From the NCBI RefSeq assembly GCF_048403405.1, contig NZ_CP183129.1: a stretch of DNA of 64,000 bases. One strand, 5' to 3'. Origin of the DNA: Escherichia coli. GTDB taxonomy: Bacteria > Pseudomonadota > Gammaproteobacteria > Enterobacterales > Enterobacteriaceae. A model generated the notes under the pieces. That model was not told where the DNA came from, ran no database searches, and saw only the letters and a list, made by a program, of their open reading frames with translations. The position numbers were made by a program, and so were the translations under genes. Shown here piece by piece: positions 1,927-63,333 of the stretch; position 1 is the stretch's first letter; each line of letters opens with the position of its first letter.

Positions 1927-2961
1927 ATGGCTTACTCTGTTCAAAAGTCGCGCCTGGCAAAGGTTGCGGGTGTTTCGCTTGTTTTATTACTCGCTGCCTG
2001 TAGTTCTGACTCACGCTATAAGCGTCAGGTCAGTGGTGATGAAGCCTACCTGGAAGCGGCACCGCTTGCGGAGCTTCATGCCCCGGCTGGAATGATTTTG
2101 CCGGTGACCTCCGGTGATTATGCAATCCCGGTGACCAACGGTAGTGGTGCTGTCGGTAAGGCGCTGGACATTCGTCCACCAGCCCAGCCGCTGGCACTGG
2201 TTTCTGGCGCGCGTACCCAGTTCACGGGCGATACCGCTTCATTGCTGGTGGAAAATGGTCGTGGCAATACTCTGTGGCCGCAGGTGGTTAGCGTGCTGCA
2301 GGCGAAAAACTACACCATCACCCAACGTGATGATGCTGGTCAGACACTGACCACCGATTGGGTACAATGGAACCGTCTGGACGAAGACGAGCAGTATCGT
2401 GGTCGTTATCAAATCTCTGTTAAGCCGCAGGGTTATCAGCAGGCGGTTACGGTTAAACTGCTGAACCTGGAACAGGCGGGCAAACTGGTTGCAGACGCGG
2501 CTTCCATGCAGCGTTACAGCACGGAGATGATGAACGTTATTTCCGCCGGTCTGGATAAATCTGCCACTGACGCCGCGAACGCTGCGCAAAATCGAGCCTC
2601 CACCACTATGGACGTACAAAGTGCAGCTGATGACACCGGTTTACCAATGCTGGTCGTACGCGGGCCGTTCAATGTGGTTTGGCAACGTCTGCCAGCGGCG
2701 CTGGAAAAAGTGGGCATGAAAGTGACCGACAGCACCCGTTCGCAGGGCAACATGGCCGTAACTTACAAGCCGCTGTCTGACAGCGACTGGCAGGAACTGG
2801 GCGCGAGCGATCCAGGCCTGGCATCCGGTGACTATAAACTGCAGGTTGGCGATTTAGATAACCGCAGCAGCCTACAGTTCATCGATCCGAAAGGTCATAC
2901 TCTGACTCAGAGTCAGAACGACGCGCTGGTAGCTGTCTTCCAGGCTGCGTTTAGCAAGTAA
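1927..2961 (+). CDS. bamC: outer-membrane lipoprotein BamC (NlpB), BAM complex component
   Basis: ATG 1927 preceded by AGGGAGA; [28 protein letters not shown] has a lipobox (LAAC); 344 aa; 16 bp after dapA, consistent with a dapA-bamC operon. Confidence 0.92.
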
Positions 2962-2967
2962 AAATAC

Positions 2968-2995
2968 AGGGCTGGAGTCATCCGGCCCTTTTTTC
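2968..2995 (+). terminator. intrinsic terminator after bamC
   Basis: GGGCTGGA-gtca-TCCGGCCC stem (one G-U pair) followed by TTTTTT, 7 bp after the bamC stop. Confidence 0.7.
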
Positions 2996-3004
2996 TGATA
3001 TGAT

Positions 3005-3020
3005 ACGCAAACGTGTGCGT
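3005..3020. promoter_or_regulatory. PurR operator-like box upstream of purC
   Basis: ACGCAAACGTGTGCGT, a near-perfect palindrome matching the pur-box consensus (ACGCAAAC/GTTTGCGT), about 155 bp upstream of the purC ATG. Confidence 0.6.
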
Positions 3021-3065
3021 CGGCAGAAAAATGCGATTTTAGCGGTAATTCGCACAAAATTTGTT

Positions 3066-3110
3066 TGTCGGACGTAGGTCGGATAAGGCGTTCTTGCCGC
3101 ATCTGACAAA
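3066..3110. repeat. REP-type palindromic unit
   Basis: GACGTAGGTCGGATAAGGCGTT...GCCGCATCTGAC matches the REP family motif (GCCGGATGCGGCG / CTTATCCGGCCTAC type) in the bamC-purC intergenic region. Confidence 0.6.
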
Positions 3111-3173
3111 ACATCCGGCACACCAGACAGCAAAAGATTTTAAAACGTTAATTCACACCCAGGAGTGATAAAG

Positions 3174-3887
3174 ATGCAAAAGCAAGCTGAGTTGTATCGT
3201 GGTAAAGCGAAAACCGTATACAGCACGGAAAACCCGGACCTGTTGGTGCTCGAATTCCGCAATGATACGTCAGCAGGGGATGGCGCGCGCATTGAGCAGT
3301 TTGATCGCAAAGGTATGGTGAACAACAAGTTCAACTACTTCATTATGAGCAAACTGGCTGAAGCGGGTATCCCGACTCAAATGGAGCGTCTGCTCTCCGA
3401 TACCGAATGTCTGGTCAAAAAGCTGGATATGGTGCCGGTTGAGTGTGTCGTGCGTAACCGTGCTGCTGGCTCTCTGGTGAAACGTCTTGGAATCGAAGAA
3501 GGTATTGAGCTGAACCCGCCGCTGTTCGATCTGTTCCTGAAAAACGACGCCATGCACGATCCGATGGTCAACGAATCTTACTGCGAAACCTTTGGCTGGG
3601 TGAGCAAAGAGAACCTGGCGCGTATGAAAGAGCTGACCTACAAAGCGAACGACGTGCTGAAAAAACTGTTCGATGATGCTGGTCTGATTTTGGTCGACTT
3701 TAAACTGGAGTTTGGCCTGTACAAAGGTGAAGTGGTACTGGGCGATGAGTTCTCCCCGGACGGCAGCCGCCTGTGGGACAAAGAAACGCTGGAGAAAATG
3801 GACAAAGACCGTTTCCGCCAGAGCCTCGGTGGCCTGATCGAGGCCTATGAAGCCGTCGCCCGCCGCCTGGGTGTACAGCTGGACTGA
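3174..3887 (+). CDS. purC: phosphoribosylaminoimidazole-succinocarboxamide synthase
   Basis: ATG 3174 after AGGAG; [39 protein letters not shown]... (237 aa) is SAICAR synthetase. The track start at 3165 is an upstream GTG. Confidence 0.95.
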
Positions 3888-24727: not shown

Positions 24728-24966
24728 GAAATATATTAGCAAAGCTTATTACTGAGTTTGCGAATAATAAAAAAAGCAGTATATAAAATATCTCGATATT
24801 ATTTTATTTATATTCATGCCTCGCATATGAAAGTTTATTCATAACAGTAAATATCTCTCCATTCTTAGTGATCTACCTCACCTTTTAAACGCGCTTGCCG
24901 AATTTTGTTATTTACTCTGACGAAAAATTGTCACGATACACGAAAGTTTTTCACAGGCGGCGACTC

Positions 24967-25302
24967 ATGGATAAAGAACGCATCATTCAGGAATTTGTGC
25001 CCGGCAAACAGGTCACACTGGCGCATCTCATCGCGCATCCCGGCGAGGAACTGGAGAAGAAAATCGGCGTTCCTGATGCGGGCGCAATCGGCATTATGAC
25101 GCTAACTCCCGGCGAAACGGCGATGATCGCCGGTGATTTAGCACTAAAAGCCGCCGATGTGCATATCGGTTTTCTCGACCGTTTTAGCGGCGCGTTGGTG
25201 ATTTATGGCTCGGTGGGTGCAGTAGAAGAAGCGTTATCACAAACCGTCAGCGGTTTAGGGCGTTTATTAAATTATACGCTTTGTGAAATGACCAAAAGTT
25301 AA
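24967..25302 (+). CDS. eutS: ethanolamine-utilisation microcompartment shell protein EutS (BMC domain)
   Basis: ATG 24967: [57 protein letters not shown]... (111 aa). The track start at 24895 is upstream in-frame in an AT-rich leader. Confidence 0.9.
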
Positions 25303-25314
25303 TACGAGGCATTC

Positions 25315-25794
25315 ATGAAACGAATTGCGTTTGTGGGTACCGTCGGGGCAGGAAAAACAACGTTATTTAATGCGTTGCAGGGAGATTATACCCTCGCCAG
25401 AAAAACGCAGGCCGTAGAATTTAATGATAAGGGCGATATTGATACGCCGGGTGAATATTTTAGCCATCCCCGCTGGTATCACGCCTTAATTACCACGCTA
25501 CAGGATGTGGACATGCTGATCTATGTCCATGGCGCGAATGACCCGGAAAGTCGGTTGCCTGCCGGGTTGCTGGATATTGGCGTCAGCAAACGGCAAATCG
25601 CCGTCATCAGTAAAACGGACATGCCAGATGCTGACGTCGCCGCAACGCGAAAGTTATTGCTTGAGACGGGCTTCGAAGAGCCGATTTTCGAGCTAAACAG
25701 CCACGACCCGCAAAGCGTGCAGCAACTGGTGGATTATCTGGCATCTCTCACCAAACAGGAGGAAGCAGGTGAAAAAACTCATCACAGCGAATGA
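25315..25794 (+). CDS. eutP: EutP, P-loop NTPase of the eut operon
   Basis: 159 aa; Walker A GTVGAGKTT. Confidence 0.9.
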   Translation: MKRIAFVGTVGAGKTTLFNALQGDYTLARKTQAVEFNDKGDIDTPGEYFSHPRWYHALITTLQDVDMLIYVHGANDPESRLPAGLLDIGVSKRQIAVISKTDMPDADVAATRKLLLETGFEEPIFELNSHDPQSVQQLVDYLASLTKQEEAGEKTHHSE

Positions 25795-26470
25795 TATTCG
25801 TGAAGCACACGCGCGCGGCGAACAGGCAATGTCCGTGGTTCTGCGCGCCAGCATTATTACCCCGGAAGCCCGTGAAGTGGCAGATCTACTGGGTTTTACC
25901 ATCACTGAATGTGATGAATCGACCCCGGTAACGGCGTCCGTTCCCGCCTGCGTGCCAGCCGATAAAACCGAAAGCCAGCGTATCCGCGAAACCATCATCG
26001 CCCAGCTACCGGAAGGCCAGTTTACCGAAAGCCTGGTCGCGCAGCTGATGGAAAAAGTGATGAAGGAAAAACAGTCACTGGAGCAGGGTGCAATGCAGCC
26101 GAGTTTCAAATCGGTGACCGGCAAAGGCGGCATCAAAGTTATTGATGGCAGCAGCGTCAAGTTTGGTCGTTTCGACGGCGCAGAGCCGCATTGCGTGGGC
26201 TTGACTGATCTTGTGACCGGAGACGACGGCAGCAGCATGGCCGCCGGTTTTATGCAGTGGGAGAACGCATTCTTCCCGTGGACCCTGAACTACGACGAAA
26301 TCGACATGGTGCTGGAAGGGGAGCTGCATGTTCGCCACGAAGGCGAAACCATGATCGCCAAAGCAGGCGACGTAATGTTTATCCCGAAAGGCTCCAGCAT
26401 CGAATTTGGTACGACATCCAGCGTGAAATTCCTGTATGTCGCCTGGCCGGCTAACTGGCAATCCCTATGA
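25769..26470 (+). CDS. eutQ: EutQ, cupin-fold protein (acetate kinase activity reported)
   Basis: 233 aa; overlaps eutP by 26 bp in a different frame. Confidence 0.88.
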   Translation: MKKLITANDIREAHARGEQAMSVVLRASIITPEAREVADLLGFTITECDESTPVTASVPACVPADKTESQRIRETIIAQLPEGQFTESLVAQLMEKVMKEKQSLEQGAMQPSFKSVTGKGGIKVIDGSSVKFGRFDGAEPHCVGLTDLVTGDDGSSMAAGFMQWENAFFPWTLNYDEIDMVLEGELHVRHEGETMIAKAGDVMFIPKGSSIEFGTTSSVKFLYVAWPANWQSL

Positions 26471-27270
26471 AAGATTTCATCACCGAAGCATGGCTAAGAG
26501 CGAATCATACGCTTAGCGAAGGCGCAGAGATCCATCTCCCTGCGGACAGTCGCCTGACGCCCTCTGCCCGGGAGTTGCTGGAAAGCCGCCATCTGCGCAT
26601 CAAGTTTATTGACGAGCAGGGCCGCCTGTTTGTTGACGATGAACAGCAGCAGCCGCAGCCCGTTCACGGGCTGACCAGTAGTGATGAACATCGGCAGGCG
26701 TGCTGCGAACTGTGCCGCCAGCCGGTGGCGAAAAAGCCGGACACGCTGACTCACCTGTCGGCGGAAAAAATGGTCGCCAAAAGCGATCCGCGTCTGGGTT
26801 TTCGCGCGGTTCTCGACAGCACCATTGCGCTGGCAGTGTGGCTGCAAATTGAACTGGCGGAACCGTGGCAGCCGTGGCTGGCGGACATCCGCTCGCGTCT
26901 TGGCAACATTATGCGCGCCGATGCGCTGGGGGAACCGCTGGCCTGCCAAGCGATTGTCGGGCTTTCTGACGAAGATCTGCATCGGCTTTCTCATCAGCCG
27001 CTGCGCTATCTTGGTCACGATCATCTGGTGCCGGAAGCCAGCCACGGGCGCGATGCGGCGTTACTCAATCTGCTACGCACCAAAGTGCGGGAAACCGAAA
27101 CCGTAGCGGCGCAGGTGTTTATAACCCGCAGTTTTGAAGTATTACGCCCGGACATCTTGCAGGCGCTGAACCGCCTTTCGAGCACGGTCTACGTGATGAT
27201 GATCCTGAGCGTAACGAAGCAGCCGCTAACGGTGAAGCAGATCCAACAACGACTGGGGGAAACGCAATGA
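26467..27270 (+). CDS. eutT: EutT, ATP:cob(I)alamin adenosyltransferase
   Basis: 267 aa; 4-bp overlap (ATGA) with eutQ. Confidence 0.88.
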
Positions 27271-28283
27271 TTATTGAACGTTGTCGTGAACTGGCGTTGC
27301 GAGCGCCCGCCAGAGTGGTTTTTCCGGATGCGTTAGATCAACGTGTGCTGAAAGCCGCGCAATATTTACATCAACAAGGTCTGGCAACGCCCATTCTGGT
27401 CGCCAATCCGTTTGAACTTCGTCAGTTTGCGCTCAGTCACGGCGTGGCGATGGACGGGCTACAGGTGATAGATCCGCATGGCAACCTCGCAATGCGGGAA
27501 GAATTTGCTCTCCGCTGGCTGGCCCGTGCGGGCGAAAAAACGCCGCCGGATGCGTTGGAAAAACTCACCGATCCGCTGATGTTCGCTGCCGCAATGGTCA
27601 GCGCCGGGACAGCGGATGTCTGTATCGCGGGCAATCTCTCTTCCACGGCGAATGTGCTGCGTGCCGGATTACGCATTATTGGCTTACAGCCAGGCTGTAA
27701 AACGCTCTCCTCCATTTTCCTGATGCTGCCACAGTACAGTGGCCCCGCATTGGGCTTTGCCGATTGCAGCGTAGTGCCACAGCCGACGGCGGCGCAGCTG
27801 GCGGATATCGCGCTTGCCAGCGCCGAAACCTGGCGCGCCATCACCGGAGAAGAGCCGCGCGTGGCGATGCTGTCGTTTTCCAGCAACGGTAGTGCCCGTC
27901 ACCCCTGCGTTGCCAACGTCCAGCAGGCGACAGAAATCGTCCGTGAGCGCGCACCGAAGCTGGTGGTGGATGGCGAGTTGCAGTTTGACGCCGCCTTCGT
28001 GCCGGAAGTGGCGGCGCAAAAAGCGCCTGCCAGCCCGCTACAAGGCAAGGCCAATGTGATGGTTTTTCCGTCGCTGGAAGCCGGAAATATTGGCTACAAA
28101 ATCGCACAACGACTCGGCGGATATCGTGCCGTCGGGCCATTGATACAAGGGCTTGCCGCGCCGATGCACGATCTCTCTCGTGGTTGTAGCGTGCAGGAAA
28201 TTATCGAGCTGGCGCTGGTGGCAGCTGTGCCGCGTCAGACAGAAGTGAACCGCGAAAGCAGTTTACAAACACTGGTTGAATGA
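27267..28283 (+). CDS. eutD: EutD, phosphotransacetylase
   Basis: 338 aa, Pta-like (resembles the C-terminal domain of maeB/pta); 4-bp overlap with eutT. Confidence 0.9.
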
Positions 28284-28321
28284 ACGGTCCCGTTCTGGAC
28301 CCTGATAAAGAGGAAAGCACA

Positions 28322-28615
28322 ATGGAAGCATTAGGAATGATCGAAACCCGGGGCCTGGTTGCACTGATTGAGGCTTCTGACGCGATGGTGAAAGCTGCGC
28401 GCGTCAAGCTGGTTGGTGTTAAGCAGATTGGCGGCGGCCTGTGTACTGCCATGGTTCGTGGTGATGTTGCAGCCTGTAAAGCCGCGACCGACGCAGGTGC
28501 TGCAGCGGCACAGCGTATCGGCGAGCTGGTATCTGTACACGTTATCCCGCGTCCGCACGGCGACCTGGAAGAAGTCTTCCCGATCGGCCTGAAAGGCGAT
28601 AGCAGCAACCTGTAA
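28322..28615 (+). CDS. eutM: EutM, hexameric BMC shell protein
   Basis: ATG 28322: [55 protein letters not shown]... (97 aa). The track start at 28280 is upstream in-frame. Confidence 0.92.
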
Positions 28616-28623
28616 TCACCCTG

Positions 28624-28660
28624 TGTGACGTCGATTCGGGCGTCACGCTCTCTCCTTTTT
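28624..28660 (+). other. stem-loop with U-rich tail in the eutM-eutN spacer (possible partial terminator or mRNA-stability element)
   Basis: GTGACG-tcgattcggg-CGTCAC followed by GCTCTCTCCTTTTTCAGTTTTCC, inside a 106-bp spacer in an otherwise tightly packed operon. Confidence 0.5.
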
Positions 28661-28721
28661 CAGTTTTCCTTCCGCGGAGGGTAGGGGGAGCTTTTACCTG
28701 AAATACGCCACGGAGGCGGGT

Positions 28722-29009
28722 ATGAAACTGGCAGTCGTCACTGGACAAATTGTTTGTACCGTACGCCATCACGGACTGGCGCATGACAAATTGCTGATGG
28801 TGGAAATGATTGATCCACAAGGTAATCCTGACGGGCAATGCGCCGTCGCCATCGACAATATTGGCGCGGGAACCGGGGAGTGGGTGTTGCTGGTGAGTGG
28901 CAGTTCTGCCCGCCAGGCGCATAAAAGCGAAACATCACCGGTCGATCTGTGCGTGATTGGCATCGTCGATGAGGTGGTGTCTGGCGGTCAGGTAATTTTC
29001 CACAAATAA
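28722..29009 (+). CDS. eutN: EutN, pentameric vertex shell protein
   Basis: 95 aa, MKLAVVTGQIVCTVRHHGLAHDKLLMVEMIDPQGNPDGQCAVAIDNIGAG... Confidence 0.9.
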   Translation: MKLAVVTGQIVCTVRHHGLAHDKLLMVEMIDPQGNPDGQCAVAIDNIGAGTGEWVLLVSGSSARQAHKSETSPVDLCVIGIVDEVVSGGQVIFHK

Positions 29010-29020
29010 GGCAGAACATC

Positions 29021-30424
29021 ATGAATCAACAGGATATTGAACAGGTGGTGAAAGCGGTACTGCTGAAAATGCAAAGCAGTGACACGCCGCCCGCCGCCGT
29101 TCATGAGATGGGCGTTTTCGCGTCCCTGGATGACGCCGTTGCGGCAGCCAAAATTGCCCAGCAAGGGTTAAAGAGCGTGGCAATGCGCCAGTTAGCCATT
29201 GCTGCCATTCGTGAAGCAGGCGAAAAACACGCCAGAGATTTAGCGGAACTTGCCGTCAGTGAAACCGGCATGGGCCGCGTCGAAGATAAATTTGCCAAAA
29301 ACGTCGCTCAGGCGCGCGGCACACCAGGCGTTGAGTGCCTCTCACCACAGGTGCTGACCGGTGACAACGGCCTGACCCTGATTGAAAACGCACCCTGGGG
29401 CGTGGTGGCTTCGGTGACGCCTTCCACTAACCCGGCGGCAACCGTAATTAACAACGCCATCAGCCTGATTGCCGCGGGCAACAGCGTCATTTTTGCCCCG
29501 CATCCGGCGGCGAAAAAAGTCTCCCAGCGGGCGATTACGCTGCTCAACCAGGCGATTGTTGCCGCAGGCGGGCCGGAAAACTTACTGGTTACTGTGGCCA
29601 ATCCGGATATCGAAACCGCACAACGCTTGTTCAAGTTTCCCGGCATCGGCCTGCTGGTGGTGACCGGCGGCGAAGCGGTAGTAGAAGCGGCGCGTAAACA
29701 CACCAATAAACGTCTGATTGCCGCAGGCGCTGGCAACCCGCCGGTAGTGGTGGATGAAACCGCTGACCTCGCCCGTGCTGCTCAGTCCATCGTCAAAGGC
29801 GCGTCTTTCGATAACAACATCATTTGTGCCGACGAAAAGGTACTGATTGTTGTTGATAGCGTAGCCGATGAACTGATGCGTCTGATGGAAGGCCAGCACG
29901 CGGTGAAACTGACCGCAGAGCAGGCGCAGCAGCTGCAACCGGTGTTGCTGAAAAATATCGACGAGCGCGGAAAAGGCACCGTCAGCCGTGACTGGGTTGG
30001 TCGCGATGCGGCGAAAATCGCGGCGGCAATCGGCTTTGAAGTTCCGGAACAAACGCGACTGCTGTTTGTAGAAACCACCGCAGAACATCCGTTTGCTGTG
30101 ACTGAACTGATGATGCCGGTGCTGCCCGTCGTGCGCGTCGCCAACGTGGCGGATGCCATTGCGCTGGCGGTGAAACTGGAAGGCGGTTGCCATCACACGG
30201 CGGCAATGCACTCGCGCAACATCGAGAACATGAACCAGATGGCGAACGCCATTGATACCAGCATTTTCGTTAAGAACGGACCGTGCATTGCCGGGCTGGG
30301 GCTGGGCGGGGAAGGCTGGACCACCATGACCATCACCACGCCAACCGGTGAAGGGGTAACCAGCGCGCGTACGTTTGTCCGTCTGCGTCGCTGTGTATTA
30401 GTTGATGCGTTTCGCATTGTTTAA
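29021..30424 (+). CDS. eutE: EutE, CoA-acylating acetaldehyde dehydrogenase
   Basis: 467 aa aldehyde dehydrogenase family with catalytic Cys context (NIICADEKV). Confidence 0.9.
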   Translation: MNQQDIEQVVKAVLLKMQSSDTPPAAVHEMGVFASLDDAVAAAKIAQQGLKSVAMRQLAIAAIREAGEKHARDLAELAVSETGMGRVEDKFAKNVAQARGTPGVECLSPQVLTGDNGLTLIENAPWGVVASVTPSTNPAATVINNAISLIAAGNSVIFAPHPAAKKVSQRAITLLNQAIVAAGGPENLLVTVANPDIETAQRLFKFPGIGLLVVTGGEAVVEAARKHTNKRLIAAGAGNPPVVVDETADLARAAQSIVKGASFDNNIICADEKVLIVVDSVADELMRLMEGQHAVKLTAEQAQQLQPVLLKNIDERGKGTVSRDWVGRDAAKIAAAIGFEVPEQTRLLFVETTAEHPFAVTELMMPVLPVVRVANVADAIALAVKLEGGCHHTAAMHSRNIENMNQMANAIDTSIFVKNGPCIAGLGLGGEGWTTMTITTPTGEGVTSARTFVRLRRCVLVDAFRIV

Positions 30425-30434
30425 GGAGTAACCG

Positions 30435-31271
30435 ATGGCGCACGACGAACAATGGCTCACCCCACGTCTGCAAACGGCGGCAACGCTGTGTAACCAGACG
30501 CCCGCCACGACGGAGTCTCCGCTGTGGCTGGGGGTAGATCTGGGCACCTGCGATGTGGTGTCGATGGTTGTCGACCGCGACGGTCAGCCGGTGGCGGTAT
30601 GCCTCGACTGGGCTGATGTGGTCCGCGACGGCATCGTCTGGGATTTCTTCGGTGCGGTCACCATTGTTCGTCGCCATCTCGACACTCTTGAGCAGCAATT
30701 CGGTCGCCGTTTTAGCCATGCGGCGACCTCATTTCCTCCTGGTACGGACCCGCGTATTTCCATCAACGTGCTGGAGTCTGCCGGACTGGAAGTGAGCCAT
30801 GTGCTGGATGAGCCAACCGCAGTTGCGGATCTGCTGCAACTGGACAACGCCGGTGTAGTGGATATCGGCGGTGGCACCACCGGCATTGCCATCGTGAAAA
30901 AGGGCAAGGTGACTTACTCGGCAGATGAAGCCACCGGCGGACATCATATCTCTCTGACTCTCGCCGGAAATCGCCGTATTTCGCTGGAAGAGGCGGAGCA
31001 GTACAAGCGCGGTCACGGTGACGAGATTTGGCCTGCGGTGAAACCGGTGTACGAAAAAATGGCGGACATTGTCGCCCGGCATATTGAAGGGCAGGGCATT
31101 ACTGATTTATGGCTGGCGGGCGGCTCTTGTATGCAACCGGGCGTGGCGGAACTGTTTCGCAAACAATTCCCGGCGTTACAGGTGCATCTACCGCAGCACA
31201 GTTTGTTTATGACCCCGCTGGCGATCGCCAGTAGCGGGCGAGAGAAAGCGGAGGGGATCTATGCAAAATGA
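30435..31271 (+). CDS. eutJ: EutJ, actin/Hsp70-fold chaperone-like protein
   Basis: 278 aa; sugar-kinase/Hsp70/actin-fold motifs (DLGTCDVVS, VDIGGGTTGIAIV). Confidence 0.88.
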   Translation: MAHDEQWLTPRLQTAATLCNQTPATTESPLWLGVDLGTCDVVSMVVDRDGQPVAVCLDWADVVRDGIVWDFFGAVTIVRRHLDTLEQQFGRRFSHAATSFPPGTDPRISINVLESAGLEVSHVLDEPTAVADLLQLDNAGVVDIGGGTTGIAIVKKGKVTYSADEATGGHHISLTLAGNRRISLEEAEQYKRGHGDEIWPAVKPVYEKMADIVARHIEGQGITDLWLAGGSCMQPGVAELFRKQFPALQVHLPQHSLFMTPLAIASSGREKAEGIYAK

Positions 31272-32448
31272 ATTGCAGGCCGCGCTCTTTCAGGCGTTCG
31301 ATACCCTGAATCTGCAACGGGTAAAAACATTTAGCGTTCCACCGGTGACGCTTTGCGGTCCGGGCGCGGTGAGCAGTTGTGGGCAGCAAGCGCAAACGCG
31401 TGGGCTGAAACATCTGTTCGTGATGGCAGACAGCTTTTTGCATCAGGCAGGGATGACCGCCGGGCTGACGCGTAGCCTGGCCGTTAAAGGTATCGCCATG
31501 ACGCTCTGGCCATGTCCGGTGGGCGAACCATGCATCACCGACATGTGTGCAGCCGTGGCGCAGTTGCGTGAATCAGGCTGTGACGGGGTGATTGCGTTTG
31601 GCGGCGGCTCGGTGCTGGATGCAGCAAAAGCCGTGGCGTTGCTGGTGACGAACCCGGATAGCACGCTGGCAGAGATGTCAGAAACCAGCGTTCTGCAACC
31701 GCGCCTGCCGTTGATTGCCATTCCAACTACCGCCGGAACCGGTTCTGAAACCACCAACGTAACGGTGATTATCGACGCGGTGAGCGGGCGCAAGCAGGTG
31801 TTAGCCCACGCCTCGCTGATGCCGGATGTGGCGATTCTCGACGCTGCGCTGACCGAAGGCGTGCCGTCGCATGTCACGGCGATGACCGGTATCGACGCGT
31901 TAACCCATGCTATTGAAGCGTACAGCGCGCTGAACGCTACACCGTTTACCGACAGCCTGGCGATTGGCGCAATCGCGATGATTGGTAAATCACTGCCGAA
32001 AGCGGTGGGCTACGGTCATGACCTTGCCGCGCGCGAGAGCATGTTGCTGGCTTCATGCATGGCGGGAATGGCGTTTTCCAGTGCGGGGCTTGGGTTATGC
32101 CACGCGATGGCGCATCAGCCGGGGGCGGCGCTGCATATTCCGCACGGTCTGGCGAACGCCATGTTGTTGCCAACGGTGATGGAATTTAACCGGATGGTTT
32201 GTCGTGAACGCTTTAGTCAGATTGGTCGGGCGCTGCGAACTAAAAAATCCGACGATCGTGACGCTATTAACGCGGTAAGTGAGCTGATTGCGGAAGTCGG
32301 GATTGGTAAACGACTGGGCGATATTGGTGCGACATCTGCGCATTACGGCGCATGGGCGCAGGCCGCGCTGGAAGATATTTGTCTGCGCAGCAACCCGCGT
32401 ACCGCCAGCCTGGAGCAGATTGTCGGCCTGTACGCAGCGGCGCAATAA
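31261..32448 (+). CDS. eutG: EutG, iron-containing alcohol dehydrogenase
   Basis: 395 aa Fe-ADH family (GGGSVLDAAK); 11-bp overlap with eutJ. Confidence 0.9.
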   Translation: MQNELQAALFQAFDTLNLQRVKTFSVPPVTLCGPGAVSSCGQQAQTRGLKHLFVMADSFLHQAGMTAGLTRSLAVKGIAMTLWPCPVGEPCITDMCAAVAQLRESGCDGVIAFGGGSVLDAAKAVALLVTNPDSTLAEMSETSVLQPRLPLIAIPTTAGTGSETTNVTVIIDAVSGRKQVLAHASLMPDVAILDAALTEGVPSHVTAMTGIDALTHAIEAYSALNATPFTDSLAIGAIAMIGKSLPKAVGYGHDLAARESMLLASCMAGMAFSSAGLGLCHAMAHQPGAALHIPHGLANAMLLPTVMEFNRMVCRERFSQIGRALRTKKSDDRDAINAVSELIAEVGIGKRLGDIGATSAHYGAWAQAALEDICLRSNPRTASLEQIVGLYAAAQ

Positions 32449-32452
32449 AAGT

Positions 32453-32574
32453 GTACGGACAGTCCCCTCGCCCCTTTGGGGAGAGGGTTAGGGTGAGGGG
32501 AACAGAGTCGCGCCGGTGCAAACAATTACCCTCACCCCGGCCCCTCGGCTTCCAGAGTGAGGGAAAAACCCACT
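32453..32574 (+). repeat. GC-rich multi-palindromic repeat, copy 2 (extended), between eutG and eutH
   Basis: Core 32455-32512 nearly identical to 19062-19110; further inverted arms GGGTGAGGG / CCCTCACCC / GTGAGGG within a 169-bp gap inside the eut operon. Confidence 0.6.
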
Positions 32575-32617
32575 TTCAGCATTGGCAATAAATAACAACT
32601 AACAGGGAGTAAAGGCG

Positions 32618-33844
32618 ATGGGAATTAACGAAATCATCATGTACATCATGATGTTCTTTATGCTGATAGCTGCCGTAGACAGGATCCTGTCGCAGTTCGG
32701 TGGTTCTGCTCGTTTCCTCGGTAAGTTCGGTAAAAGTATCGAAGGATCAGGCGGTCAGTTCGAAGAAGGCTTTATGGCAATGGGCGCTCTGGGCCTGGCG
32801 ATGGTCGGTATGACCGCGCTGGCACCGGTACTGGCTCACGTACTCGGGCCGGTGATTATCCCGGTTTACGAAATGCTCGGCGCAAACCCGTCAATGTTCG
32901 CCGGAACACTGCTGGCGTGCGATATGGGCGGGTTCTTCCTCGCCAAAGAGCTGGCGGGCGGCGACGTAGCAGCGTGGCTATACTCTGGGTTAATTCTCGG
33001 GTCGATGATGGGGCCAACGATTGTGTTTTCCATTCCGGTGGCGCTCGGCATTATCGAACCTTCTGACCGTCGTTATCTGGCGCTCGGCGTGCTGGCGGGC
33101 ATTGTGACCATTCCGATTGGCTGTATTGCTGGTGGTCTGGTTGCTATGTACTCCGGTGTGCAGATCAACGGTCAGCCGGTGGAATTCACCTTTGCGCTGA
33201 TCCTGATGAACATGATCCCGGTACTTATCGTTGCGGTGCTGGTGGCGCTGGGGCTGAAATTCATCCCGGAAAAAATGATCAACGGCTTCCAGATCTTCGC
33301 CAAATTCCTCGTTGCATTGATCACCCTCGGTCTTGCTGCCGCGGTAGTGAAATTCCTCCTTGGCTGGGAACTGATCCCCGGTCTGGATCCTATCTTTATG
33401 GCCCCTGGCGACAAACCCGGTGAAGTGATGCGCGCCATTGAAGTTATCGGTTCTATCTCCTGCGTTCTGTTAGGGGCGTACCCGATGGTGCTGCTGCTGA
33501 CCCGCTGGTTTGAAAAACCGCTGATGAGCGTCGGTAAAGTGCTGAATATGAACAACATCGCGGCAGCTGGCATGGTGGCAACGCTTGCTAACAACATCCC
33601 GATGTTCGGCATGATGAAGCAGATGGATACCCGCGGCAAAGTCATCAACTGCGCCTTCGCCGTTTCCGCTGCTTTCGCCCTGGGTGACCACTTAGGCTTC
33701 GCCGCTGCCAACATGAACGCCATGATTTTCCCGATGATTGTCGGCAAGTTGATCGGCGGCGTAACGGCGATTGGCGTGGCGATGATGCTGGTGCCAAAAG
33801 AAGACGCGACCGCGGCCAAAACCGAAGCGGAGGCACAATCGTGA
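32618..33844 (+). CDS. eutH: EutH, ethanolamine permease
   Basis: 408 aa polytopic membrane protein; ATG 32618 after GGGAG. Confidence 0.9.
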   Translation: MGINEIIMYIMMFFMLIAAVDRILSQFGGSARFLGKFGKSIEGSGGQFEEGFMAMGALGLAMVGMTALAPVLAHVLGPVIIPVYEMLGANPSMFAGTLLACDMGGFFLAKELAGGDVAAWLYSGLILGSMMGPTIVFSIPVALGIIEPSDRRYLALGVLAGIVTIPIGCIAGGLVAMYSGVQINGQPVEFTFALILMNMIPVLIVAVLVALGLKFIPEKMINGFQIFAKFLVALITLGLAAAVVKFLLGWELIPGLDPIFMAPGDKPGEVMRAIEVIGSISCVLLGAYPMVLLLTRWFEKPLMSVGKVLNMNNIAAAGMVATLANNIPMFGMMKQMDTRGKVINCAFAVSAAFALGDHLGFAAANMNAMIFPMIVGKLIGGVTAIGVAMMLVPKEDATAAKTEAEAQS

Positions 33845-35244
33845 ACACTCGCCAGCTACTGAGCGTCGGTATCGATATCGGCACCACCACCACCCAGGTG
33901 ATTTTCTCCCACCTGGAGCTGGTTAACCGTGCGGCGGTGTCGCAGGTGCCGCGCTACGAATTCATCAAACGCGAAATTAGCTGGCAAAGCCCGGTGTTCT
34001 TTACCCCTGTCGATAAACAGGGTGGTTTAAAAGAAGCGGAACTGAAAACCTTAATCCTGGAGCAATATCAGGCTGCGGGCATTGCGCCGGAAAGTGTTGA
34101 TTCTGGTGCCATCATCATCACCGGTGAAAGCGCGAAAACCCGCAACGCTCGCCCGGCGGTGATGACGCTCTCCCAGTCTCTGGGCGATTTTGTCGTCGCC
34201 AGCGCCGGGCCGCATCTCGAATCCGTGATCGCCGGTCACGGTGCCGGGGCGCAAACCCTTTCTGAACAACGGCTGTGTCGGGTACTGAATATCGATATCG
34301 GCGGTGGCACTGCGAACTACGCCCTGTTCGATGCCGGAAAAATCAGCGGCACCGCCTGCCTCAACGTCGGCGGTCGCCTGCTGGAAACCGACAGCCAGGG
34401 GCGCGTGGTTTACGCTCATAAACCGGGGCAGATGATTGTGGATGAGTGCTTCGGCGCAGGCACCGACGCCCGTTCGCTGACCGGCGCGCAGCTGGTGCAG
34501 GTTACCCGGCGGATGGCAGAGCTGATTGTCGAAGTGATTGACGGAACGCTTTCGCCGCTCGCGCAGGCATTAATGCAAACCGGTTTGCTGCCCGCAGGTG
34601 TTACGCCCGAAATCATTACGCTTTCTGGCGGCGTGGGCGAATGTTATCGCCACCAGCCCGCCGACCCGTTCTGTTTTGCCGATATCGGCCCGCTTCTGGC
34701 AACGGCGCTGCATGACCATCCGCGCCTGCGTGAGATGAACGTGCAGTTTCCGGCGCAAACCGTACGCGCCACGGTGATTGGCGCGGGTGCACATACCCTT
34801 TCGCTCTCTGGCAGCACAATCTGGCTGGAGGGCGTACAACTGCCGCTGCGCAATTTGCCGGTGGCGATCCCAATTGATGAAACGGATCTGGTGAGTGCCT
34901 GGCAACAGGCGCTGATTCAGCTGGATCTTGATCCCAATTCTGACGCGTACGTGCTGGCGCTTCCCGCCTCGCTGCCTGTGCGTTACGCCGCGGTACTGAC
35001 GGTCATCAACGCGCTGGTCGATTTCGTCGCGCGTTTTCCGAATCCGCATCCCCTGCTGGTGGTGGCCGGGCAGGACTTTGGTAAAGCTCTGGGCATGTTG
35101 TTGCGCCCACAGCTACAACAACTCCCGTTGGCAGTCATTGACGAAGTGATTGTCCGCGCGGGGGACTATATCGACATTGGTACGCCTCTTTTTGGCGGAT
35201 CGGTTGTGCCGGTGACGGTGAAATCACTCGCATTTCCTTCCTGA
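33841..35244 (+). CDS. eutA: EutA, ethanolamine ammonia-lyase reactivase
   Basis: 467 aa; GTG start 33841 overlapping the eutH stop; ASKHA-fold motifs (GIDIGTTTT). Confidence 0.9.
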   Translation: MNTRQLLSVGIDIGTTTTQVIFSHLELVNRAAVSQVPRYEFIKREISWQSPVFFTPVDKQGGLKEAELKTLILEQYQAAGIAPESVDSGAIIITGESAKTRNARPAVMTLSQSLGDFVVASAGPHLESVIAGHGAGAQTLSEQRLCRVLNIDIGGGTANYALFDAGKISGTACLNVGGRLLETDSQGRVVYAHKPGQMIVDECFGAGTDARSLTGAQLVQVTRRMAELIVEVIDGTLSPLAQALMQTGLLPAGVTPEIITLSGGVGECYRHQPADPFCFADIGPLLATALHDHPRLREMNVQFPAQTVRATVIGAGAHTLSLSGSTIWLEGVQLPLRNLPVAIPIDETDLVSAWQQALIQLDLDPNSDAYVLALPASLPVRYAAVLTVINALVDFVARFPNPHPLLVVAGQDFGKALGMLLRPQLQQLPLAVIDEVIVRAGDYIDIGTPLFGGSVVPVTVKSLAFPS

Positions 35245-35255
35245 GGGAACGACTT

Positions 35256-36617
35256 ATGAAACTAAAGACCACATTGTTCGGCAATGTATATCAGTTTAAG
35301 GATGTAAAAGAGGTGCTGGCTAAAGCCAACGAACTGCGTTCGGGGGATGTGCTGGCGGGCGTTGCAGCGGCAAGCTCACAAGAGCGCGTGGCGGCAAAGC
35401 AGGTGTTGTCGGAAATGACCGTAGCGGACATCCGCAATAATCCGGTGATTGCCTATGAAGATGACTGCGTGACGCGGCTGATTCAGGACGACGTTAACGA
35501 AACGGCCTACAACCAGATTAAAAACTGGAGCATCAGCGAACTGCGTGAGTATGTCCTGAGCGATGAAACCAGCGTGGACGACATTGCCTTTACCCGCAAA
35601 GGGCTGACCTCGGAAGTGGTTGCGGCGGTAGCGAAGATTTGCTCCAACGCGGACCTGATCTACGGCGCGAAGAAAATGCCGGTAATCAAAAAGGCCAATA
35701 CCACCATCGGTATTCCGGGCACCTTCAGCGCCCGTTTGCAGCCAAATGACACCCGTGACGACGTGCAAAGTATCGCTGCGCAAATCTACGAAGGGCTTTC
35801 CTTCGGGGTGGGCGATGCGGTGATCGGCGTCAACCCGGTGACGGACGACGTGGAAAACTTAAGCCGCGTGCTGGACACCATCTACGGCGTGATCGACAAA
35901 TTCAACATTCCGACCCAGGGCTGCGTGCTGGCGCACGTCACCACCCAGATTGAAGCGATCCGTCGTGGCGCACCGGGCGGGCTGATTTTCCAGAGTATCT
36001 GCGGCAGCGAAAAAGGGCTGAAAGAGTTTGGCGTGGAGCTGGCGATGCTCGATGAAGCACGCGCAGTGGGCGCGGAGTTCAACCGTATCGCCGGGGAAAA
36101 CTGCCTCTACTTCGAAACCGGACAAGGTTCGGCGCTGTCCGCTGGCGCTAACTTCGGCGCTGACCAGGTGACGATGGAAGCGCGTAACTATGGGCTGGCG
36201 CGTCATTACGATCCGTTTATCGTCAACACCGTGGTCGGTTTTATTGGGCCGGAGTATCTCTACAACGACCGCCAGATTATCCGCGCGGGCTTAGAAGATC
36301 ACTTTATGGGCAAGCTGAGCGGCATCTCTATGGGCTGTGACTGCTGCTACACCAACCACGCTGACGCTGACCAGAACCTCAACGAAAACCTGATGATCCT
36401 GCTCGCCACCGCAGGCTGTAACTACATCATGGGGATGCCGCTGGGTGATGACATCATGCTCAACTACCAGACTACGGCCTTCCACGACACCGCCACTGTG
36501 CGTCAGTTACTCAACCTGCGCCCGTCACCGGAGTTTGAACGCTGGCTGGAAAGCATGGGCATTATGGCAAACGGTCGCCTGACCAAACGGGCGGGCGATC
36601 CGTCACTGTTCTTCTGA
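35256..36617 (+). CDS. eutB: EutB, ethanolamine ammonia-lyase large subunit
   Basis: 453 aa, MKLKTTLFGNVYQFKDVKEVLAKANELRSGDVLAGVAA...; starts 11 bp after eutA. Confidence 0.93.
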   Translation: MKLKTTLFGNVYQFKDVKEVLAKANELRSGDVLAGVAAASSQERVAAKQVLSEMTVADIRNNPVIAYEDDCVTRLIQDDVNETAYNQIKNWSISELREYVLSDETSVDDIAFTRKGLTSEVVAAVAKICSNADLIYGAKKMPVIKKANTTIGIPGTFSARLQPNDTRDDVQSIAAQIYEGLSFGVGDAVIGVNPVTDDVENLSRVLDTIYGVIDKFNIPTQGCVLAHVTTQIEAIRRGAPGGLIFQSICGSEKGLKEFGVELAMLDEARAVGAEFNRIAGENCLYFETGQGSALSAGANFGADQVTMEARNYGLARHYDPFIVNTVVGFIGPEYLYNDRQIIRAGLEDHFMGKLSGISMGCDCCYTNHADADQNLNENLMILLATAGCNYIMGMPLGDDIMLNYQTTAFHDTATVRQLLNLRPSPEFERWLESMGIMANGRLTKRAGDPSLFF

Positions 36618-36637
36618 TGACGCGGAGATAACACATC

Positions 36638-37525
36638 ATGGATCAAAAACAGATTGAAGAAATTGTACGCAGCGTGATGGCGTCAATGGGACAAGCGGCC
36701 CCCGCGCCGTCAGAAGCAAAGTGCGCCACCACCACCTGTGCGGCACCGGTGACCTCGGAAAGCTGCGCGCTGGATTTAGGCTCTGCGGAAGCAAAAGCGT
36801 GGATTGGCGTTGAAAACCCGCATCGCGCAGACGTATTAACAGAACTGCGTCGCAGCACCGTGGCCCGCGTTTGTACCGGTCGTGCCGGTCCGCGTCCGCG
36901 TACCCAGGCGTTGCTGCGTTTCCTGGCCGATCACTCTCGTTCGAAAGATACCGTACTGAAAGAAGTGCCGGAAGAGTGGGTGAAAGCGCAGGGCTTGCTG
37001 GAAGTCCGCTCTGAAATTAGCGACAAAAATCTCTACCTGACTCGTCCGGATATGGGCCGCCGCCTGTGTGCAGAAGCTGTTGAAGCGCTGAAAGCGCAGT
37101 GTGTTGCCAATCCGGACGTGCAGGTCGTTATTTCTGATGGCCTGTCAACTGATGCGATCACCGTGAACTACGAAGAGATCCTGCCACCGCTGATGGCGGG
37201 CCTGAAACAGGCCGGGCTGAAAGTCGGTACGCCATTCTTTGTTCGTTATGGTCGCGTGAAGATTGAAGATCAGATCGGTGAGATCCTCGGCGCGAAAGTA
37301 GTGATCCTACTGGTGGGGGAACGCCCGGGATTAGGGCAGTCAGAAAGCCTCTCCTGCTACGCCGTTTACTCGCCGCGTATGGCGACCACCGTTGAGGCCG
37401 ATCGCACCTGCATCTCTAACATTCACCAGGGCGGCACGCCGCCGGTTGAAGCCGCAGCCGTCATTGTGGATTTGGCGAAACGTATGCTGGAGCAGAAAGC
37501 ATCCGGCATCAACATGACCCGATAA
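36638..37525 (+). CDS. eutC: EutC, ethanolamine ammonia-lyase small subunit
   Basis: 295 aa, [19 protein letters not shown]... Confidence 0.92.
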
Positions 37526-37534
37526 GGAGGCATC

Positions 37535-38194
37535 ATGCCAGCTTTAGATTTGATTCGACCGTCGGTCACCGCCATGCGGGTGATTGCCTCTGTTAACGCC
37601 GAATTTGCGCGTGAACTGAAATTGCCGCCGCATATTCGTAGCCTCGGGCTGATTTCTGCTGATTCCGATGACGTCACCTACATTGCGGCTGACGAAGCGA
37701 CCAAGCAGGCGATGGTCGAAGTGGTGTATGGCCGCTCGCTGTATGCGGGAGCTGCACACGGACCGTCACCGACTGCCGGTGAAGTGCTGATTATGCTCGG
37801 TGGGCCAAACCCGGCGGAAGTGCGTGCTGGTCTGGATGCGATGGTTGCGCATATTGAAAATGGCGCGGCTTTCCAGTGGGCTAATGATGCGCAAGATACG
37901 GCATTCCTGGCACATGTAGTTTCGCGTACCGGTTCTTATCTCTCATCAACCGCCGGGATCACGCTTGGCGATCCGATGGCGTATCTGGTGGCACCGCCGC
38001 TGGAAGCGACCTATGGCATTGATGCAGCCCTGAAATCTGCCGACGTACAGCTGGTGACCTATGTCCCGCCACCGTCTGAAACCAACTACTCGGCAGCATT
38101 TTTAACCGGTAGCCAGGCAGCGTGTAAAGCAGCCTGTAACGCCTTTACCGATGCAGTGCTGGAAATCGCGCGTAATCCAATCCAGCGTGCGTAA
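37535..38194 (+). CDS. eutL: EutL, tandem-BMC-domain (trimeric) shell protein
   Basis: 219 aa. Confidence 0.9.
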
Positions 38195-38206
38195 CGGAGG
38201 TTGCCG

Positions 38207-38707
38207 ATGATCAATGCACTGGGATTGCTGGAAGTGGACGGCATGGTCGCCGCGCTAGATGCTGCGGATGCCATGCTCAAAGCAGCTAACGTTCGTCTGC
38301 TCAGTCACGAAGTGCTTGACCCTGGTCGCCTAACGCTGGTGGTGGAAGGCGATCTGGCGGCGTGTCGTGCGGCGCTGGACGCAGGTTGTGCTGCCGCGAT
38401 GCGTACCGGGCGTGTCATCAGCCGCAAGGAGATCGGTCGGCCAGACGATGACACCCAGTGGCTGGTTACTGGCTTTAACCGCCAGCCTAAGCAACCCGTA
38501 AAGGAACCCGACGCGCCAGTTATCGTCGCGGAATCTGCTGACGAGTTGTTGGCGCTGTTAACATCAGTACGTCAGGGAATGACGGCAGGAGAAGTGGCTG
38601 CCCACTTTGGCTGGCCGCTGGAAAAAGCCAGAAATGCGCTCGAACAGCTCTTTTCTGCCGGGACGTTACGTAAACGCAGTAGTCGTTATCGTCTCAAGCC
38701 CCATTAA
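38207..38707 (+). CDS. eutK: EutK, BMC shell protein with C-terminal helix-turn-helix-like extension
   Basis: ATG 38207: MINALGLLEVDGMVAALDAADAMLKAANVRLL... (166 aa). The track start is TTG at 38201. Confidence 0.88.
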   Translation: MINALGLLEVDGMVAALDAADAMLKAANVRLLSHEVLDPGRLTLVVEGDLAACRAALDAGCAAAMRTGRVISRKEIGRPDDDTQWLVTGFNRQPKQPVKEPDAPVIVAESADELLALLTSVRQGMTAGEVAAHFGWPLEKARNALEQLFSAGTLRKRSSRYRLKPH

Positions 38708-38752
38708 CCTGTCGGAGGTGCCGGGTGTCCTACAACACCCGGCATTAACATC

Positions 38753-39805
38753 ATGAAAAAGACCCGTACAGCCAATTTGCACCATCTTTATCATGAACCC
38801 TTACCCGAAAACCTGAAGCTCACGCCGAAGGTCGAAGTGGATAATGTTCATCAACGACAGACAACGGATGTCTATGAACATGCTTTGACAATTACCGCCT
38901 GGCAGCAGATTTACGATCAGCTGCATCCGGGCAAGTTTCATGGTGAATTTACGGAAATTCTACTCGATGATATTCAGGTTTTTCGTGAATACACCGGTCT
39001 GGCGCTGCGTCAGTCGTGCCTGGTCTGGCCGAATTCGTTCTGGTTTGGCATTCCGGCGACGCGCGGTGAGCAGGGATTTATCGGTTCGCAATGTCTGGGA
39101 AGCGCAGAAATAGCGACGCGCCCTGGTGGAACCGAGTTTGAATTAAGTACGCCGGATGATTACACGATCCTTGGCGTAGTGCTTTCTGAAGATGTCATCA
39201 CCCGTCAGGCTAACTTTTTGCATAATCCGGATCGGGTATTACATATGCTGCGTAGCCAGTCGGCGCTGGAAGTGAAAGAGCAGCATAAAGCCGCGCTGTG
39301 GGGCTTTGTCCAACAGGCGCTGGCGACATTTTGCGAGAACCCGGAAAATCTTCATCAGCCTGCTGTGCGTAAAGTGCTGGGGGATAATTTGCTAATGGCG
39401 ATGGGGGCGATGCTGGAAGAAGCGCAGCCAATGGTGACGGCGGAAAGCATCAGTCATCAGAGTTACCGTCGGTTGCTTTCCCGCGCCCGTGAATATGTGC
39501 TGGAAAACATGTCTGAGCCGGTGACTGTGCTGGACTTGTGTAATCAACTGCATGTCAGCCGCCGCACGCTACAAAACGCGTTTCACGCTATTTTAGGCAT
39601 TGGCCCAAATGCGTGGCTGAAACGCATTCGCCTGAACGCCGTACGCCGCGAACTGATAAGCCCTTGGTCGCAAAGCACAACGGTAAAAGACGCCGCCATG
39701 CAGTGGGGATTCTGGCATCTGGGGCAATTTGCCACGGATTACCAGCAGCTGTTTGCCGAGAAGCCGTCGTTGACGCTGCATCAGCGGATGCGGGAATGGG
39801 GGTGA
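38753..39805 (+). CDS. eutR: EutR, AraC-family activator of the eut operon
   Basis: 350 aa; C-terminal AraC HTH (region around [33 protein letters not shown]). Confidence 0.9.
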
Positions 39806-39810
39806 GGGAG

Positions 39811-40713
<903 letters not shown>

Positions 40714-59257: not shown

Positions 59258-60019
59258 TTACCGCCACATCGCGTGTTTATCGCGATAGCAATCGACCCAC
59301 ATCGCCGTCGCACCACAAACGGCAACGGGCATGATGAACAGATTAAGCAGAGGGATCATCGTAAACAGGCTGGTTAAAGCACCAAACTGCATATTGGTGA
59401 TTTTGCGTGTGCGCAGGGCGGTGCGCATCTCTTTAAACGGCACTTTGTGGTTATCGAAGGGGTAATCGCAATACTGGATGGCTAACATCCAGGCGCTAAA
59501 CAGGAACCATAGTACCGGCGCGACGGTTTGCCCAATACCAGGGATGAAGTAAAGAATTAGCAATACAATTGCGCGCGGCAGATACCAGGCAAATTTTTGC
59601 CATTCGCGTTTCATGATTCGCGGCACATCTTTCATGATACCGAAAATCCCGGTATCTGGCGGTGTAGCGCCAGTCAATCGTGCTTCCAGTTGTTCAGCCA
59701 ATAAACCGTTAAACGGAGCGGCAATCCAGTTAGCAATCGTTGAGAAGAAATAGCCAAACACTAACAGCACGGAGATGACTGCCAGAGGCCACAACAGATA
59801 GCTCAGCCATTGTAACCAGTCCGGAACATAACTCATGAGAGTCGGGATCCAGACATCGAGTTGCGTAAATAGCCACCAGAATGCGCCCCCCATCAACAAA
59901 ATATTGACCAGCAGCGGTAAAATAACGAAACGCCGAATCCCAGGTTGCGAGACGAGCTTCCAGCCTTGCGCAAAATAGTAAAAACCGCTGCGTGGGGCAG
60001 ATGTGAATGATGAAACCAT
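59258..60019 (-). CDS. cysZ: sulfate transporter CysZ
   Basis: 253 aa polytopic membrane protein, [31 protein letters not shown]... Confidence 0.9.
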
Positions 60020-60248: not shown

Positions 60249-61247
60249 ATGATGCAGGATTTGCGTCTGATATTAATCATTGTTGGCGCGATCGCCATAA
60301 TCGCTTTACTGGTACATGGTTTCTGGACCAGCCGTAAAGAACGATCTTCTATGTTCCGCGATCGGCCATTAAAACGAATGAAGTCAAAACGTGACGACGA
60401 TTCTTATGACGAGGATGTCGAAGATGATGAGGGCGTTGGTGAGGTTCGTGTTCACCGCGTGAATCATGCCCCGGCTAACGCCCAGGAGCATGAGGCTGCT
60501 CGTCCGTCGTCGCAACACCAGTACCAACCGCCTTATGCGTCTGCGCAGCCGCGTCAACCGGTCCAGCCGCCGCCTGAAGCGCAGGTACCGCCGCAACATG
60601 CTCCGCGTCCAGCGCAGCCGGTGCAGCAACCCGTGCAGCAGCCTGCCTATCAGCCGCAGCCTGAACAGCCGTTGCAGCAGCCAGTTTCGCCACAGGTCGC
60701 GTCAGCGCCGCAGCCAGTGCATTCAGCACCGCAACCGGCACAACAGGCTTTCCAGTCTGCAGAACCCGTAGCGGCACCACAGCCTGAGCCTGTAGCGGAA
60801 CCGGCTCCAGTTATGGATAAACCGAAGCGCAAAGAAGCGGTGATTATCATGAACGTCGCGGCGCATCACGGTAGCGAGCTAAACGGTGAACTGCTTCTTA
60901 ACAGCATTCAACAAGCGGGCTTCATTTTTGGCGATATGAATATTTACCATCGTCATCTTAGCCCGGATGGCAGCGGCCCGGCGTTATTCAGCCTGGCGAA
61001 TATGGTGAAACCGGGAACCTTTGATCCTGAAATGAAGGATTTCACTACTCCGGGTGTCACTATCTTTATGCAGGTACCGTCTTACGGTGACGAGCTGCAG
61101 AACTTCAAGCTGATGCTGCAATCTGCGCAGCATATTGCCGATGAAGTGGGCGGTGTAGTGCTTGACGATCAGCGCCGTATGATGACTCCGCAGAAATTGC
61201 GCGAGTACCAGGACATCATCCGCGAAGTCAAAGACGCCAACGCCTGA
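60249..61247 (+). CDS. zipA: cell-division protein ZipA
   Basis: ATG 60249: [30 protein letters not shown]... N-terminal TM anchor, P/Q-rich linker, C-terminal FtsZ-binding domain; 332 aa from this start. The track ORF begins 17 codons upstream. Confidence 0.9.

Positions 61248-61308: not shown

Positions 61309-63333
<2,025 letters not shown>

Follow-up and report, generated by a model that had tools for sequence, protein, structure and literature searches.

The window, by which we mean the whole stretch of 64,000 nucleotides of Escherichia coli DNA that was analyzed, carries zipA on the plus strand at positions 60249–61247 (332 codons plus the stop codon). The gene was assigned from the list of open reading frames, from a Pfam match and from its identity to annotated zipA. 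It lies between cysZ (59258–60019, minus strand) and ligA (61318–63333, plus strand), and the order cysZ–zipA–ligA, as read from the open reading frames, is the conserved position of the gene. We adopted the ATG at 60249 as the start, in the style of RefSeq; the stop codon occupies 61245–61247. This start yields a protein of 332 residues, as an earlier reading made from the letters of the window (the sequence-only reading) had stated, and the same ATG is the annotated start in a record with an identical zipA. Over its 999 bases the gene matched the zipA annotated in strain K_EC180, whose product is WP_001328398.1, with 100% identity. RefSeq annotates zipA in 20 of the 20 E. coli records from which the zipA region was fetched.

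The domains were delimited by comparison with ZipA of K-12, a protein of 328 residues with a PQ domain at residues 86–185 and a globular FtsZ-binding domain at residues 186–328, in which the linker forms an unstructured, flexible tether (PMC6904479). With these boundaries, the P/Q-rich disordered linker of the window protein comprises residues 86–189 (K-12 numbering 86–185) and is encoded at 60504–60815 on the plus strand. Residues 1–87, which include the N-terminal anchor and the charged region, were identical to those of K-12 and are followed by the P/Q-rich linker. The FtsZ-binding domain was recognized by Pfam (PF04354, ZipA_C) at residues 198–321, that is, at 60840–61211 on the plus strand, with an E-value of 3.1e-46 and a score of 156.8 bits (cut-off 23); its protein sequence is that of K-12. 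Every defining feature of ZipA, which tethers FtsZ to the membrane in gammaproteobacteria, that could be tested was present, and the protein is a standard ZipA. Given an FtsZ-binding domain identical to that of K-12, it would be expected to bind FtsZ and to be needed in cell division. Neither Rfam nor the tRNA scan gave a match anywhere in the window.

The PVQQ repeat and its counterpart in K-12

The linker contains two adjacent units of 12 bases, seen both in the sequence as read and in the codon view. The first copy, CCGGTGCAGCAA, occupies 60618–60629 on the plus strand and encodes P124 V Q Q127; the second, CCCGTGCAGCAG, occupies 60630–60641 on the same strand and encodes P128 V Q Q131. Ten of the 12 bases match, and the two differences are both synonymous third-position changes. 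The tandem near-duplication encoding PVQQ-PVQQ that the sequence-only reading had reported in the linker was confirmed in sequence and in coordinates: it corresponds to residues 124–131, in frame with the open reading frame from 60249. A hexanucleotide repeat, CAGCCG CAGCCT (encoding QPQP; 60651–60662, plus strand), adjoins it 10 bases downstream.

Taken alone, the PVQQ repeat is statistically unremarkable. Tandem Repeats Finder reported no repeat between 60200 and 61300 at a minimum score of 30, the PVQQ repeat being too short for this program. Codon shuffling of the linker produced a tandem 12-mer with at least 10 of 12 matches in 26% of cases, and residue shuffling produced an exact tandem repeat of four residues in 6.9%. 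The two units do form a tandem short repeat of at least two adjacent copies, yet one below the threshold of the program and at a level that chance reaches in 26% of shuffles. Because the repeat is weak by both measures, the case for a real variant rests on the comparison between genomes.

In K-12 BW25113, zipA is 987 bp long and encodes 328 residues, compared with 999 bases and 332 residues in the window. The K-12 length given in the sequence-only reading was correct, as both this gene and the published description (PMC6904479) attest. DNA and protein alignments placed the whole difference, exactly 12 bases or four residues, at the repeat, and the four extra codons proved to be exactly one PVQQ unit; length and repeat count thus differ between the two genes, as had been proposed. 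As aligned, the 12 bases absent from K-12-type alleles are GTGCAGCAACCC (60621–60632, plus strand). In the DNA alignment, an 8-base direct repeat, GTGCAGCA, is found at 60621–60628 and again at 60633–60640 (plus strand), and removal of one GTGCAGCA together with the four intervening bases gives the K-12 sequence exactly.

ZipA of K-12 (WP_001300494.1) otherwise shares much with the window protein: the neighbors cysZ and ligA in the same order, and an identical N-terminal anchor, charged region and C-terminal FtsZ-binding domain. Apart from the additional PVQQ unit at 60621–60632, the window gene differs from that of K-12 by nine nucleotides. At the protein level there are five amino acid substitutions, P88S, Q107P, H120R, P152S and P170S, all in the linker; the rest of the protein, the indel aside, is identical. 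A proline is gained or lost in four of the five substitutions.

Length alleles among complete E. coli genomes

A survey of linker length across E. coli, suggested by the sequence-only reading, was carried out in a collection of 5,426 complete genomes, in which the whole-gene zipA query matched 5,427 records. The rows sampled from this search split into spans of 999 and 987 bases. With a 200-base query centered on the repeat, 2,378 records had an identity of 95% or above and 3,048 had one of 90–95%; the spans sampled were 200 bases in the former class and 188 bases in the latter, and 62 records had less than 80% query coverage. A synthetic query with three copies of the unit separated the alleles further: 2,316 records lacked one of its units (the long allele), 3,040 lacked two (the short allele) and 71 fell in neither class. 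Two more queries were concordant, with 2,311 long and 3,042 short alleles. The two-copy allele of the window thus accounts for about 43%, the one-copy allele of K-12 for about 56% and other alleles for about 1% of the 5,427 records, percentages that describe the database, a biased sample of isolates, and not nature. Strains differ by whole units at this exact site, with one, two and three copies all found.

In the same collection, one of the 5,426 genomes gave no zipA match, and two matches were on records labelled plasmid. A collection of plasmids also yielded zipA matches, mostly on records of megabase size that appear to be misfiled chromosomes; in one record of 50 kb the match spanned 992 bases, a length not divisible by three.

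Direction of the length change

The sequence-only reading had taken the extra unit to be a repeat expansion in this strain. To address the direction of the change, we compared regions of 6.2 kb from seven genomes with the long allele and seven with the short one, drawn as an evenly spaced sample of the match ranking. Four Escherichia outgroups other than E. coli (E. albertii, E1V33, SCPM-O-B-8794 and MOD1-EC7003) came from a scan of species-representative genomes, which listed 80 loci; the main E. coli, E. fergusonii and full-length Salmonella matches were not among them, and Salmonella zipA was obtained from the flanks of partial matches. A neighbor-joining tree, in which these four lineages served as outgroups to 19 sequences of E. 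coli, was then computed from zipA with 600 bases of flank at either end (2,121 columns free of gaps) and rooted on E. albertii. In this tree, which is limited to about 2.1 kb so that recombination could distort its topology, long alleles occupied several basal branches and were paraphyletic within E. coli, and all seven of the sampled short alleles fell in one terminal clade. According to the haplotype table, the long alleles sampled come from divergent haplotypes and all share one diverged insert, GTGCAGCAACCC.

The indel is linked to a single-nucleotide polymorphism at 60716 (plus strand). At this position A is found in the window, in E. albertii and in all of the long alleles sampled, and T in all of the short ones sampled; since E. 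albertii has A, T is the derived base. Neither the short allele with A nor the long allele with T was found at 100% identity among the 5,427 records, as probed on the commonest exact background. Spans of the long allele were seen in NU14, APEC O18, IMT5155, PMV-1, IAI39, CE10, ST648, O157:H7 and O55:H7, and spans of the short allele in K-12, ST167 and O111:H8, a distribution that agrees with the tree. We take the named long-allele strains to belong to phylogroups B2, F and E, and the named short-allele strains to A and B1.

Other species offered a view of the unit itself. In ZipA of other Escherichia and Enterobacteriaceae, units of the QPVQQ(P) type occupy the same position in the linker in variable number. 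In the other Escherichia the unit has 18 bases (QPVQQP) and one to three copies, and the two-copy allele of E. coli resembles two such units minus 6 bases. We counted two units in SCPM-O-B-8794, three in E1V33 and two in E. albertii, the second of which is degenerate. In both SCPM-O-B-8794 and E1V33 the first unit ends in CAG CAA and the last in CAG CAG, exactly like the two copies in the window. The nearest outgroup, MOD1-EC7003 (Escherichia sp.), has a single unit ending in CAA CCG, which suggests an independent loss. In Intestinirhabdus alba the linker holds its units in a long, regular row, first two of QPAQQP and then four of QPVQQP; this array is much more regular than that of E. coli and shows QP(A/V)QQP as the building unit of the ZipA linkers of the family.

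Long alleles at the base of the tree, short alleles in one derived clade, the linked T and the units of the outgroups together point to a contraction in K-12. We consider it very probable that K-12 carries this contraction and that the window carries no expansion but retains the older state, so that the direction originally proposed is probably to be reversed. Had the window allele instead arisen by a 12-base tandem duplication in a K-12-like ancestor with one unit, the single unit of MOD1-EC7003, as the nearest outgroup, would be accounted for, and duplications of the unit do occur (EcN_Sk has re-duplicated it and 700481 has gone from two copies to three). Yet the two copies differ at the same two synonymous sites in every sampled long allele, and their CAA/CAG pattern is that of the first and last units of the outgroups; the long alleles are basal and paraphyletic, and the short ones make up a single derived clade, marked by the derived T that is linked to them. 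A fresh duplication of the K-12 unit is, furthermore, expected to be a perfect copy, which is exactly what EcN_Sk shows and what the window lacks. An origin of the window allele by duplication is therefore unlikely.

One strain that tells against this reading, ET915 (from sediment, China; zipA at 2720–3718 of the fetched region), carries the long allele. At all informative sites its cysZ–zipA–ligA haplotype otherwise agrees with that of short-allele strains of the B1 type, such as O111:H8. Either this is a surviving pre-deletion haplotype or a patch of less than about 250 bases was recombined into it; the deletion would accordingly be younger than that haplotype, or the allele would have moved by recombination.

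With the two-unit state as the older one, the variant is with good confidence explained as an in-frame polymorphism in length, ordinary and of long standing, in the disordered P/Q tether. The older state of E. coli would have had two units (332 residues), as the remnant of an array of 18-base QPVQQP units. The K-12-type allele would have arisen from it by loss of 12 bases between the 8-base direct repeats GTGCAGCA, most likely through replication slippage. Judging from the tree, there was apparently a single loss, on the branch from which the A/B1-type haplotypes descend, and its inheritance since then would have been clonal. The site still slips in both directions, on rare occasions.

Several rare alleles bear on this last point. 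In 700481 the 12 bases GTGCAGCAACCC are duplicated once more, giving three copies and 336 residues. EcN_Sk carries a perfect re-duplication of the short allele, GTGCAGCAGCCT twice in succession, on a K-12-type haplotype, and can be distinguished from the common long allele. In 2017-02-2CC (zipA at 2720–3730 of the fetched region) the neighboring CAGCCG CAGCCT has become four copies of CAGCCT, which adds QPQP and also gives 336 residues; the hexanucleotide is thus a further, minor site of slippage. TB06052 has the long allele with CAA changed to CAG. The first three amount to about three independent changes of length among 5,427 records, each known from one assembly. The site does slip, as the sequence-only reading had anticipated, but rarely, with the three-copy allele, the re-duplication and the expansion of the neighboring hexanucleotide seen once each in the 5,427 records. 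Changes in copy number have recurred independently in EcN_Sk and 700481 (single assemblies), to which the apparent loss in MOD1-EC7003 can be added.

This behavior is not that of a phase-variable contingency locus, because the 12-base unit never shifts the frame and switching is infrequent: the changes are always in frame, the alleles are linked to clades and only about three events were seen in 5,427 records. In-frame changes in the copy number of a short unit, within an unstructured spacer of low complexity whose exact sequence is of little consequence, are what the site has in common with slippage polymorphisms of disordered linkers in general, for which the C-terminal linker of FtsZ, disordered and tolerant of length change, is an example; it differs from them in having only one to three copies, rare events and no on/off switching.

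Tolerance of linker length

The ZipA tether has about 100 residues, so that a difference of four would alter its contour length by about 4% and is expected to have no measurable effect on the tethering of FtsZ; by simple arithmetic, the expected random-coil end-to-end distance changes by about 2%. Across the Enterobacteriaceae species examined, ZipA has 320–345 residues and the number of QPVQQ-type units varies. The position of the repeat inside an unstructured tether, the very small change in contour length and the variable lengths in the family all favor neutrality, as does the finding that the five substitutions relative to K-12 are confined to the linker, leaving the anchor, the charged region and the FtsZ-binding domain unchanged. 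It is strongly suggested, too, by natural isolates with linkers 28 to 33 residues shorter than that of K-12. The four-residue difference is, on these comparisons of sequence, very likely neutral.

The first of the shortened alleles encodes 300 residues and was found in ML775 (O103; 620–1522 of the fetched region). It lacks 84 bases relative to K-12 and 96 relative to the window. The deletion corresponds to approximately 60614–60709 of the window, lies between CGCAGCC microhomologies and removes the whole PVQQ repeat region. Its junction was matched in one piece at 100% identity by exactly 30 complete genomes. Most carriers are of bovine or human origin, come from a single study series and have genomes of about 5.4 Mb, and the carriers together probably constitute one clonal lineage.

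The second encodes 295 residues and was seen in one genome, EM10-18-28 (chicken meat, Laos; 301–1188 of the fetched region). Here an in-frame deletion of 111 bases relative to the window (approximately 60567–60677) lies between two CAGCAGCC repeats. The flanks of this zipA are 100% identical to those of long-allele strains such as IAI39, NU14 and CE10. When this allele was used as the query, normal alleles tied with it at 100% through two joined pieces, so that carriers are not separable by this search.

Could the difference in length nevertheless be functional, with tether length tuning the spacing between the membrane and the Z-ring or the avidity of ZipA for FtsZ, under lineage-specific selection? 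Both alleles are frequent (43% and 56% of the records in this collection), and the 300-residue allele is fixed in a lineage of 30 genomes. These frequencies track clonal structure, however, as those of a neutral marker would, and only four of about 100 disordered residues change; natural isolates carry the deletions of 28 to 33 residues relative to K-12, and both the length and the sequence of the linker drift freely among related genera, the substitutions relative to K-12 being all in the linker. We regard a functional difference as very unlikely. A more specific form of the idea, in which the one-unit allele swept through A/B1 and the 300-residue allele became fixed in a lineage that includes O103, both by selection on tether length under particular growth conditions, appears very improbable. 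An artefact of sequencing or assembly, in favor of which we found no point, has practically no probability and is effectively ruled out, as over 2,300 complete genomes, independent of one another, carry the same in-frame 999-base allele, annotated as an intact zipA.

We prefer, then, to regard the variant as a very likely neutral polymorphism in the tether. Variation in the copy number of the PVQQ unit is of a familiar kind, a change in the number of short repeats in a disordered spacer, and the exact protein already has a RefSeq accession. A search of the literature for polymorphism in the zipA linker found no description, and this absence reflects the unremarkable nature of the polymorphism. 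Its biological weight is small: the protein is well studied, and the variant looks like a neutral marker. It is of some practical use all the same. In about 43% of the complete E. coli genomes in the collection, K-12 numbering of ZipA is shifted by four after residue 123. The indel and the polymorphism at 60716 together make a simple marker that distinguishes A/B1-type from B2/F/E-type haplotypes. Finally, the natural alleles of 295 to 336 residues form a ready series on the tolerance of ZipA to linker length in the wild.

Comparison with K_EC180 also yielded two observations elsewhere in the window. Between bamC and purC, K_EC180 has an IS200C element (about 706 extra bases) at the position corresponding to approximately 2989–2994 of the window, which is without it. 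The zipA genes are 100% identical, yet the next 47 kb after the IS200C site are only 98.4% identical; given these two differences, the window belongs to another strain, whose source the identity of zipA does not reveal. The eut operon, mapped from the annotation of K_EC180 to approximately 24960–39880 of the window, runs uninterrupted from eutS to eutR, with eutA followed directly by eutB; in K-12 the operon is interrupted by the CPZ-55 prophage remnant.
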